DNA from: a virus
Taxonomy: Duplodnaviria > Heunggongvirae > Uroviricota > Caudoviricetes
Direction: 5' to 3' (one strand)
IMG/VR virus record: IMGVR_UViG_2778261686_000011
Length of the DNA stretch: 18,877 nucleotides
Shown piece by piece: positions 6,001 to 9,000 of the stretch (position 1 is the stretch's first letter; each line of letters starts with the position of its first letter). Position numbers: made by a program.

Positions 6001-9000
6001 AATAGTCAGGCGACCACCGCGATTGACATACATCGGCGTTTCGGTGGTGTCTTCTTCGGAAATTTTCCCGCGGTTAGTCGGGCGAACATATGAGAGTTTG
6101 TGTTTGATTTTCACACGGTTCTCATCAAACGGTTCGATTTCCAGGTTGAGCGAGACCTTACCTTTGGTTTTCGTGTTCATCACACCGGAAGCGACTTCAC
6201 TGAGAACTGCGCCGATTTTGGTTTCAAATACGCCGCCGTCCAGCTCCCCGATAAATGCCTGCACATCAGTACTGCGTTCGCTAGCCATTTTGCTGCTCCT
6301 CATCATATCGACCCTGCAAGGTCGGTTGGTTTCTCCACAAAACAGAGAAGAACACCTGCGGTGGCAGCCGCCCGGGTGGATTGGGTTATGAGCCCGTCGT
6401 CCGGTGATGCTCTTCTCTGTTTTGTAAAAAGAGCGGTACCAGCCGGAAGCAAGTGTACAAACTGGTACCGCCAAAGCAGTGGCTGTTGTGGTGGGGTTGT
6501 CACTTAAGCGTATGGTCAACCTGACAACCCGGTGCCACTAATGGGGTAAGGATAACCCCGCCATACTTACCGCCGCGCCATTTCGCGGATTACCACAACG
6601 CTGAGAGCACTTAGCCAGTTATGGCACCACACTTTGTCGCGGCTCCATAAATGCCCTCATCGTTGCACCCTGGTCTCTTCCCAGGCGTCAAACCGAATCG
6701 CCACGCTGGTTAGGCGTCTTATCAGCATCATCATTGACTTGCACATTCCGGCTACCTGGTTTGTTTGCCCGAGCAAGGAGTGGATTGTCCCCTTTAACGT
6801 CCCCAGACCGCTAACGACGCATGTGCCATACGCCGTGTTACAACCAAATTTTGTTAGTACCTTGTTTGTAGGTCTGGAAAGAAAGATAAAATGAAGTTGC
6901 GCATTATGCAAGTGTTTTTATTGCGAGATATGCAATTTGGTGGGTAATGAAAAGCCACCTTCTGGTGGCTAATTGATGTTGAGGTAGGGGGTTAATTGTG
7001 TCGCTTAAGGGTTTGTGACTGACTGATTAAGACCTTTCCAAAGACCATAAACCGGTGTTCGTTTTCGCTGGTAATTCCCCATTCGCGGTAAATCTGATTA
7101 TCAGAAATTACCAGCAGTTTATCAGGTATCATTTGCAGTCGTTTGACGTAAATTTTATCATCAAAACCAAATACATATATACCATCTCCATCAAACTGAT
7201 TGATACTGATATCAACGAAGATGAGATCTCCTGGCTCAATGGTTGGACACATACTGTCCCCACGAACGTTGATAACTTTAATGTGATTTGCTGGTCGTCC
7301 ACCAAACATCGATACAGCATTATCAGTTCTGTATTCAATGGCATGAATCACATCAATGACATCACCGCCCTGGATAAGGCCATTTCCCGCACTGGCACTG
7401 ACATCCAGCATTTCAATACGGAATACATCCTTCACCTGCGCAACATCCTCACTAATACTGTTTTTACATACAGTATTACTTTTGAGGTCTGAGGTAAAGA
7501 GATCAGCAATATCAACACCTAAGCTCCTGGCAATATTACTCAGGGCTTGTTCAGTGAATTGTTTCTGCTTACCTGTTTCGAGGCGCGAGATATTCGCCGC
7601 ATCCACTCCTATTGCTTCAGCGAGATCGGCGATTTTCATGTTCTTCGCCTGGCGAAGTTGTCTGACTCGATTTCCTATGTTCATGCGTTTATTACATTTC
7701 TTTATTGCGCGTTAAGCAAATCAACTTGCGCAAAATATTTGCGTGAAATAATATGCTCATCACGCAATATGTGGAGGTTATATGCAATCACCATTACGGA
7801 ATGTGCGTAAGGCGCACGGATTTACTTTGCAGCATGTTGCTGCGGGCGTTCAGGTCAATCCAGCGACGCTGAGTCGTATTGAAAGACTGGAACAAATTCC
7901 ATCTATCGATCTTGCAGAACGTCTGGCCAATTTTTTTAAGGGTGAAATCAGCGAAATGCAGATTCTTTATCCGGCACGTTTTCAATCTAGCCAAAACCAG
8001 AATGGGTTTAAACCACAGGAACAGGAGGTAAGCCGTGGGTAAGCATCACTGGAAAGTGGAAAAACAACCTGAGTGGTACGTGAAAGCTGTCAGAAAAACT
8101 ATCGCGGCATTGCCTGGGGGTTACGCTGAAGCTGCTAACTGGCTGGATGTAACAGAGAACGCTTTATTCAACCGCCTTCGTGCAGATGGCGATCAGATTT
8201 TCCCGCTGGGATGGGCAATGGTTTTACAGCGCGCGGCTGGCACTCACTACATTGCGGATGCTGTCGCACAGTCTGCTGGTGGGGTGTTCGTATCGCTTCC
8301 TGAAATTGAGGAAGTAGAGAACGCCGATATAAACCAGCGCCTGCTGGAAGTCATCGAACAGATCGGGAATTACTCAAAGCAGATTCGTTCGGCAATCGAA
8401 GATGGGGTCGTGGAGCCACACGAGCAGACAGCAATTAATGATGAGTTGTATCTGTCAATTTCGAAGCTCCAGGAGCATGCAGCACTGGTCTACAAAATCT
8501 TCTGCGCTCCAGAAAAGAGTGACGCCCGCGAGTGTGCAGCTCCGGGCGTCGTGGCGTTTTGTGTCTGTGGAGAAACTAACGCATGAACAGTTTAACGGCA
8601 AATAACCGTTTGTCGCAACAGCTGGTGGTCAGTGTCGCTGAACACCTGTTGTTACGGCATGAATGCAGATTACCAGATCACCTGGCTGTAAGTAACCACA
8701 GAGAACTTTACCTGACTGTGGGGGGCGAGTTGTGCAGGAACTTAACCGCTGGTTTCGTGACGGAAGAGGGCTTTATGTCCATGTTATTCGTTGGGAGCCA
8801 GAAACACAGCGCGTTATCTATCTTCGCAAAGACTACCCGCATGAGTGCTTTAGTCCTTTGTGGAAATTCAGGCGTGATTTTGTTGAGTGTGAAGGACCAC
8901 CAGCACATTGATTCTGCCATTCCGGGACGTTACACTGTTCAGGCACCTTATAAAACGGGTGCCGGGCGTGGAAACCCGGAATTCACCAAAGCGCACAACC

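Follow-up and report, generated by a model that had tools for sequence, protein, structure and literature searches.

Conserved 15-bp palindromes on both sides of the repressor gene as likely CI and Cro operators of a common lambdoid immunity module

An 18,877-nucleotide stretch of DNA from a phage of the class Caudoviricetes (IMG/VR record IMGVR_UViG_2778261686_000011; hereafter the window, meaning this stretch at its full length) carries a family of short palindromic sites on both sides of its repressor gene, cI. Judged from their sequence and setting, these sites are very likely the operators of a lambda-type lysis-lysogeny switch, bound by the repressor CI and by Cro. The motif is best written as a 15-bp palindrome, TTGCR-N5-YGCAA, or as TTGC-N7-GCAA. 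Two sites, OL1 and OL2, lie at the left operator (OL) position beyond the end of cI, and two more, A and C, lie 48 bp apart at the right operator (OR) position, in the 97-bp control region from which cI (minus strand) and cro (plus strand) diverge (Table 1). The sites are present in excess of chance, their conservation points to purifying selection on the DNA itself, and they go together with the repressor module.

Results

Exact copies of the motif exceed chance

A sequence-only reading of the window had proposed that TTGCG-N5-(A/T)GCA(A/T) is the sequence recognized by the repressor and Cro, and had listed two copies at OL and at least three at OR. A motif search of the whole window found exact copies above the chance level: TTGCG-N5-WGCAW occurs five times versus 0.34 expected, and TTGC-N7-GCAA four times versus 0.79, and none of 200 shuffles reached five or four, respectively. 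The sole match to either pattern outside the two intergenic regions, at 9374-9388, is the number predicted by chance. When one mismatch was permitted, the motif was at background, with 19 matches versus 14.8 expected; only the good copies are special.

We then scored the window with a weight matrix built from 30 unique sites, all from relatives, with the window itself and phage mEp460 left out. The matrix ranks OL1, OL2, A and C first to fourth in the whole window (scores in Table 1), and the best match in shuffled windows averages 10.6 bits (standard deviation 2.4). All four sites have the sequences originally described for them, and both OL sites, 6897-6911 and 6921-6935, are the top two matches. 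The background-level count for the one-mismatch motif would suit the idea that the repeats are due to chance or base composition, but we give this practically no probability: no shuffle equals the exact-match counts, a matrix made only from relatives places the four sites first, and the comparative data refute it, with positions and half-sites conserved in dozens of diverged relatives.

The window holds eight matrix matches of at least 10 bits, versus 0.75 expected. Weaker matches, of 10-12.5 bits, lie at 9374-9388, 9421-9435 and 9538-9552 in an open reading frame (ORF) for a Rha/antirepressor protein, and at 10089-10103 in a replication gene. Those at 9421 and 9538 occur equally in the heteroimmune phage cdtI. 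As operators, we regard these four as probably incidental, given that two are shared with cdtI and that one exact match is expected by chance; weak matches are nonetheless in slight excess.

The sites are conserved in place and in their half-sites

To follow the sites in other genomes, we drew on phage records, GTDB genomes, metagenomes and IMG/VR and gathered 177 loci encoding repressor relatives; most of what came from the metagenome and viral scans was near-identical. The recognition helix D-x-A-N-(I/V)-S-R-(L/V)-E-T-G-K-Q-K is retained by repressors of 67-100% identity, which occur in Escherichia, Shigella, Salmonella, Citrobacter, Klebsiella, Trabulsiella, Buttiauxella and Pseudescherichia. 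Relative to the cI start, the sites have fixed offsets in these relatives: about -785 and -762 for the OL pair, +21 for A and +69 for C. Site A was found at +21 from the cI ATG in 15 of the 15 loci examined, and site C at +69 in all loci examined, where it reaches 21 bits in relatives. OL has exactly two sites in 39 of 41 non-redundant variants, with an OL1-OL2 spacing of 21-24 bp.

Within the sites, it is the half-sites that are held constant. A gap-free alignment of 16 non-redundant control regions gives an entropy of 0.00 bits for the half-site cores, versus 1.09 for the N5 centres and 0.74 for other intergenic positions. Among 76 unique sequences whose repressors are at least 98% identical, heterozygosity is 0-0.03 in the half-sites and 0.07-0.14 in the OL N5 centres and inter-site spacers, compared with 0.016 in cI and 0.025 in the left flank, so that variation in the OL N5 centres and spacer exceeds that in cI or the left flank by a factor of 3-9. 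This is the signature, in the alignments, of protein-contacted bases separated by uncontacted ones, and it indicates that the sites are under purifying selection at the DNA level.

The variable positions at OL form a hot spot at 6897-6952 (with equivalents in loci L017-L176), which takes in both OL N5 centres, the spacer between the two sites and a further 17 bp beyond OL2. Among repressors at least 98% identical, heterozygosity there is 0.07-0.14, versus 0.015-0.025 in the flanks and cI, and 1-3 bp indels shift the OL1-OL2 spacing from 21 to 24 bp. The hot spot may reflect relaxed constraint or tuning of operator affinity.

Two loci depart from the usual arrangement. A Pseudescherichia metagenome-assembled genome (L013) carries a remnant with cI, a degraded cro that retains the site inside cro described below (site D), a gene for a Q-like zinc-finger protein and no OL; a perfect site, TTGCGCGTTACGCAA, lies 913 bp rightward of its cI start. 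Klebsiella spallanzanii (L014) has one OL site and, between the stop codon of cI and its terminator, a CTTGCGCAAG element.

The initial proposal also took the motif to define the immunity specificity of this particular phage. As a probable recognition sequence the motif stands; as a private specificity it does not, since the comparison shows it to be common to repressors down to 67% identity. All relatives with TTGCR-N5-YGCAA sites carry one recognition helix.

The sites travel with the repressor module and fit the recognition helices of CI and Cro

Phage cdtI and Stx2c (Shiga toxin 2c) phages share flanking DNA with the window at ~95% identity and have a different cI/cro pair. In cdtI, the one phage with shared flanks in which palindromes at the equivalent places were examined, these are of GTAC type, and none of the TTGCG sites is present. 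Because cdtI shares the flanks without the sites, the motif belongs to the immunity module and not to its surroundings, and by this comparison operators and repressor are inherited together, as one exchangeable immunity module.

Read directly from the proteins, the recognition helices of CI (ANISRLETG) and Cro (ATLSRIERL) have S-R-(L/I)-E in common. In an alignment to helix-turn-helix domains of the 434 type, the arginine of this motif aligns with Gln33 of 434, which is a base-contacting residue. A PDB sequence search yielded no close solved homologue of CI or Cro (best E values 2e-4 and 4e-3), and protein-DNA contacts could therefore be assigned only through this alignment.

A 2025 preprint on phage 1720a-02 provides a second view of Cro. 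The control region of 1720a-02 differs from that of the window at one nucleotide, in the N5 of site C, and its Cro is near-identical to that of the window (identical through residue 72). A Cro dimer was modelled with AlphaFold3 on 20 bp located 20-39 nt upstream of cI, with an interface predicted template-modelling score (ipTM) of 0.92 (bioRxiv 10.1101/2025.01.01.630987). These 20 bp correspond to 7704-7723 of the window, i.e. to site A. In the model, whose Cro fold is P22-Cro-like, Arg32 makes bonds to one guanine on either strand, the two being eight apart (bioRxiv 10.1101/2025.01.01.630987), contacts that would fit the G of GCAA in each half-site. Genetics and reporters further showed that 1720a-02 Cro acts on another prophage, phiNP, by repressing its lytic promoter (bioRxiv 10.1101/2025.01.01.630987). 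Gene context, phylogenetic footprinting, linkage to the module, the shared helix motif and the Cro model thus all favor the original suggestion of a CI/Cro operator family on both sides of cI.

Table 1. Features of the immunity region, in window coordinates. Scores are from the weight matrix built on relatives.
Feature	Position	Strand	Sequence or product	Remarks
OL1, PL-proximal operator	6897-6911		TTGCGCATTATGCAA	Exact motif; 20.6 bits, top of the window
OL2 operator	6921-6935		TTGCGAGATATGCAA	Exact motif; 18.6 bits; 24 bp from OL1
Site A, OR3-like	7705-7719		TTGCGCGTTAAGCAA	Exact motif; 17.3 bits
Element M, candidate	7724-7733		ACTTGCGCAA	Invariant part ACTTGCGCA (7724-7732); contains predicted PR -35
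Site C, OR1-like	7753-7767		ATGCTCATCACGCAA; minus strand TTGCGTGATGAGCAT	15.7 bits
Site D, probable	7803-7817		GTGCGTAAGGCGCAC	Exactly cro codons 8-12; 10.3 bits in the window
PL, predicted	6883-6911	minus	-35 TTGCAT (6911 to 6906), 17-nt spacer, -10 TATCTT (6888 to 6883)	Start near 6876
PRM, predicted	7691-7719	minus	-35 TTGCTT (7719 to 7714), 17-nt spacer, -10 TGTAAT (7696 to 7691)	
PR, predicted	7726-7754	plus	-35 TTGCGC (7726-7731), 17 nt, -10 TAATAT (7749-7754)	Start near 7761
cI	6992-7684	minus	Repressor, 230 amino acids	N-terminal Cro/C1-type helix-turn-helix and C-terminal S24 autopeptidase (Pfam)
cI recognition helix			...DAANISRLETGK...	Within the N-terminal helix-turn-helix of cI
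cI intrinsic terminator	6953-6970	minus	Hairpin AGCCACC-AGAA-GGTGGCT, then TTTTCATT	
cro	7782-8042	plus	86 amino acids; HTH_3 (Pfam), in the cro position	Recognition helix ...PATLSRIERLE... with Arg32
cII	8035-8586		CP76-type (Pfam)	

The operators overlap predicted promoters

Conserved hexamers at the correct spacings allow us to infer a leftward promoter (PL), a rightward promoter (PR) and a promoter for repressor maintenance (PRM; Table 1). The -35 element of each of these predicted promoters is an operator half-site. OL1, centred about -28 from the predicted PL start, overlaps the PL -35, which is its right half, and the spacer; site A overlaps the PRM -35 and spacer; and site C takes in the final 2 bp of the PR -10 as well as the predicted start point. 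If the hexamers are used as predicted, the operators would overlap all three promoters. Of the -10 elements, ATTACA (PRM) is invariant in 16 non-redundant relatives, TAAYAT (PR) is conserved in relatives, and the AAGATA block (the reverse complement of TATCTT, PL) is retained in most relatives, as is its distance to OL1. Since the A of the cI ATG (7684) is the seventh base past the PRM -10 and there is no Shine-Dalgarno sequence, the cI mRNA made from PRM is probably leaderless, with a predicted start at 7684. As an alternative PRM, the minus-strand promoter TCCACA-16-TATTAT (7775-7748) reported by a consensus promoter scan was rejected: its -35 is unconserved in relatives, whereas TGTAAT at 7696-7691 is invariant.

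The coincidence of half-sites with the predicted -35 elements of PL, PR and PRM raises another reading, in which the pentamers are promoter elements (TTGCxx -35 hexamers) or sites for another factor, such as TTGC repeats read by CII. Lambda CII does recognize TTGC repeats. We nevertheless find this very improbable: the half-sites distal to the promoters are no less invariant than those at the -35, sites C and D lie away from -35 positions, the CII of the window is in the CP76 family and unrelated to lambda CII, across heteroimmune phages the sites go with the cI-cro module, and Cro has been modelled on site A.

The middle of OR holds a candidate half-operator

In its layout of OR, the sequence-only reading had three canonical operators at a 24-bp spacing (beginning at 7705, 7729 and 7753), with 7729-7743 as a lambda-like OR2. 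The outer two, one of them in reverse orientation, are sites A and C. The middle one is not a copy of the motif: in CGCAAAATATTTGCG (7729-7743) the pentamers are everted (CGCAA-N5-TTGCG) and face outwards, and a symmetric helix-turn-helix dimer that reads TTGCG-N5-CGCAA cannot bind it in the same manner. The 24-bp register does equal the OL1-OL2 spacing in the window, and both CGCAA and TTGCG are present at 7729-7743 and are kept where the repressor is at least 93% identical, the TTGCG at 7739 only there. However, 7729-7743 falls under the 8-bit reporting threshold of the matrix in every locus, and the 13 bases at 7734-7746 are the most variable stretch of the whole control region (1.37 bits) in relatives with repressors 67-84% identical. 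An OR2 at this place is, in our estimation, quite improbable. In the subgroup with repressors at least 93% identical, and only there, the extra TTGCG at 7739 is linked with the right half of site C in a 29-bp palindrome, TTGCGTGA-N13-TCACGCAA (7739-7767).

Conservation in this region is concentrated instead in element M, where the entropy across the 16 relatives is 0.04 bits, versus the 1.37 bits of 7734-7746. Element M contains TTGCGCAA, an invariant 8-bp palindrome made of two abutting half-sites, and from its sequence we consider it a candidate that is probably a weak or half operator. Its register could be either of two. At 7726-7740 it would lie 21 bp from A, within the 21-24 bp range seen at OL, and at -28 from PR; the right half matches at four of five positions in several lineages. 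At 7719-7733 its centre would be at -42 from the cI start and PRM, as is lambda OR2 relative to PRM; a full site in this register is present only in Citrobacter amalonaticus (L012). CRP boxes, LexA boxes and TTGC repeats of the lambda CII type were also considered for this central region and ruled out by spacing and sequence.

A conserved match inside cro

Site D, which the sequence-only reading did not list, lies within cro, 50 bp beyond site C and at about +49 relative to the PR start as predicted. All 15 loci examined have it, +119 or +120 from the start of cI, at 10-19 bits, and it scores 17-19 bits in several relatives (for example TTGCGAAAATCGCAA, among the highest). Codon 8 encodes Val or Leu (GTG or TTG) and codon 11 Ala or Ser (GCG or TCG), so that the residues change while the TG and CG of the half-sites stay. 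Leucine at codon 8 is always TTG, versus TTA, CTT, CTC and TTG at codon 16, and serine at codon 11 is always TCG, versus TCT, TCC, TCA and TCG at codon 17. By comparison, there is free variation at the third bases of codons 9, 10 and 12, all of which belong to the N5 centre or to the loose outer end of the site. The fixed half-site bases in the face of residue changes argue for selection on the DNA, and on this pattern site D is probably a fourth right-hand operator.

It is also possible, though we doubt it, that site D is no operator and that its conservation stems from the Cro N-terminus, from constraints on translation initiation or from an mRNA hairpin. The site does coincide with codons 8-12 of a conserved L/V-R-K-A/S-H motif, cro codons 1-6 likewise vary little at third positions, a hairpin scan found that it could form a 5-bp RNA hairpin, and its score in the window is low. 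The restricted codons at 8 and 11, the variable third positions in the N5 centre and the high scores in several relatives speak for an operator instead.

A model for the switch

From the arrangement of the sites we infer how they might work together, including which protein binds which site, whether binding is cooperative, and what M and D do. A CI dimer or a Cro dimer would read the 15-bp TTGCR-N5-YGCAA, with one helix-turn-helix per TTGCR half-site, and the conserved arginine of S-R-(L/I)-E would probably contact the G of each GCAA. CI on site C would block PR, keeping cro and the lytic genes off, while Cro or excess CI on site A would shut off cI by way of PRM. The invariant TTGCGCAA would provide the PR -35 and probably also a weak, cooperatively filled half-operator, and site D would probably add a downstream contact for CI, as a roadblock or as a loop partner for site C. 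On induction, RecA-stimulated self-cleavage of CI would free the operators; the residues assigned to this reaction, Ala99-Gly100, Ser144 and Lys181, are invariant across nine relatives.

Several observations weigh against this assignment or parts of it. The consensus promoter scan reports none of PL, PR and PRM as proposed here; their -35 hexamers are poor, with three of six matches, which is why the scan missed them. Site A outscores site C in the window (17.3 versus 15.7 bits), the reverse of what simple lambda logic would give for CI. OR has no canonical OR2 and does not show three adjacent operators about two helical turns apart, so lambda-style OR1-OR2 cooperativity and activation of PRM cannot be assumed. 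Site D is weak in the lineage of the window (10.3 bits) and lies in coding sequence. Finally, the 1720a-02 preprint mentions no electrophoretic mobility shift or other binding assay (bioRxiv 10.1101/2025.01.01.630987), and a literal search across 8 million papers did not find the five site sequences.

A more speculative version of the model, which we think unlikely, has CI bridging or wrapping the ~100 bp that span A, M, C and D to repress PR and control PRM. By analogy, such an arrangement would be closer to the flanking-site and downstream-operator systems of phages 186 and TP901-1 than to the adjacent-pair cooperativity of lambda; if true, it would apply to an immunity type found in about one fifth of complete Escherichia coli genomes, Stx2 phages included.

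Genes of the module and their distribution

The window contains a lambdoid immunity module with cI, cro and cII. CI matches HTH_3 (1.1e-10) and Peptidase_S24 (5.9e-19) in Pfam. The cI terminator parts the PRM transcript from OL and PL; the record of Shigella phage SfII annotates a putative rho-independent terminator at the equivalent place, and a GC hairpin followed by an A/T run is retained there in relatives. Phages mEp460 and 1720a-02 annotate a repressor of 215 amino acids that starts at Met16, 15 codons short. Translation very probably begins instead at the ATG at 7684, because the Pfam helix-turn-helix match begins at residue 3-7 and residues 1-15 are kept in all relatives. The start-site loci compared were 7640-7684 in the window, 3557-3601 in L002 and 1296-1340 in L177.

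At the nucleotide level the module is 96-99% identical in mEp460, PhiR47_1, phiSTEC1575-Stx2k, Stx2a_1447, Stx2a_WGPS2 and 1720a-02, and 91% identical in SfII; the phages that bear it include several Stx2a and Stx2k converting phages. None of the records of related phages that were inspected carries an operator annotation, and literature searches on the operators of SfV and SfII and on the 'OFR' site of HK022 returned nothing useful. Of 5426 complete E. coli genomes, 1040 (about one fifth) carry the module. Some of these genomes hold two or three copies of the immunity region at 90% identity or more (query 6880-7830 of the window), which is unexpected for homoimmune prophages; some copies may be defective, or subtypes may differ in specificity.

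Neighboring RNA features

Just downstream of cII, Rfam identifies isrK (8943-9019, plus strand, 67.9 bits) and the C4 antisense RNA (9044-9131, plus strand, 83.6 bits), both at gathering level. The two matches lie inside an ORF (8583-9734, 383 amino acids) that is called 'Rha' in the mEp460 annotation. Its Pfam Ash match, at residues 117-213 (~8931-9221), coincides with both RNAs, and its Rha domain starts at residue 223. The arrangement looks like a P1 immI-like module, in which a c4-type RNA controls an antirepressor, as a second layer of immunity, and the long ORF and the Ash match may be translations of RNA genes. Rfam reports no RNA family in or near the operators (gathering thresholds across the whole window, and E values up to 1 for 6280-6990).

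The predicted PL start and the first convincing leftward gene are about 590 nt apart (approximately 6290-6880, minus strand), and the interval between them has no N-like ORF. The first 119 nt of the predicted PL transcript adopt a closed multi-hairpin fold in prediction (-37.2 kcal/mol, z = -2.7), and part of the leader is shared with cdtI. A cis-acting RNA, such as a put-like antiterminator, is a possible function for this leader.

Comparison with known systems

Conceptually, this is an ordinary CI/Cro switch. As in lambda, cI and cro diverge with operators between them, further operators are clustered at the leftward promoter, past the cI terminator, the repressor combines a helix-turn-helix with an S24 autopeptidase, the cI mRNA from PRM is predicted to be leaderless, and a palindromic operator is predicted to be read by both CI and Cro. 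Unlike in lambda, the operator is 15 bp rather than 17 bp and unrelated in sequence; OL has two sites rather than three; at OR, two strong sites at a distance of 48 bp flank the putative half-operator, and a canonical OR2 at -42 is lacking; cro contains an additional site, with a strict A-C-D spacing of 48 bp and 50 bp; Cro is an HTH_3 protein of the P22/434 type and does not have the lambda Cro fold; CII is of the CP76 family; and no N gene adjoins PL. Two of these departures from the textbook, the lack of a canonical OR2 and the operator that probably lies inside cro, deserve to be flagged, and only the OR geometry and the site in cro could surprise a specialist.

CI of the window is closest to the SfII/mEp460/ST64B-like repressors. 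Among characterized proteins, the nearest are the P22 C2-like repressor of phage SE1, a Klebsiella 'C2 protein' and HK022 cI, at ~42-43% amino acid identity over the whole repressor. The operators of P22 and HK022 have other sequences and lengths, and the recognition helix of the window repressor, ANISRLETGK, is distinct from theirs. In operator layout the nearest system is 933W, which has five natural operators of 15 bp with a central base pair, three of them at OR and the other two at OL (PMC3317979). The window shares with 933W the 15-bp operators, the two OL sites and an immunity type carried by Stx phages, but it differs in half-site sequence, in its degenerate third OR site and in the additional site in cro; the 933W repressor is not among the listed close relatives of the window CI.

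Phage 1720a-02 has the same immunity module, and the Cro site predicted in the preprint is site A. That work covers one 20-bp Cro site; the operator family, OL, site C, M and D are not described there. What is new here is the operator set of a very common and biochemically uncharacterized immunity type, partly anticipated by that one modelled site. The operator consensus predicts which prophages are homoimmune or cross-regulated, the silencing of another prophage by 1720a-02 Cro being an example, and gives exact targets for work on Stx-phage induction, and the comparison corrects gene starts (cI in mEp460 and 1720a-02).

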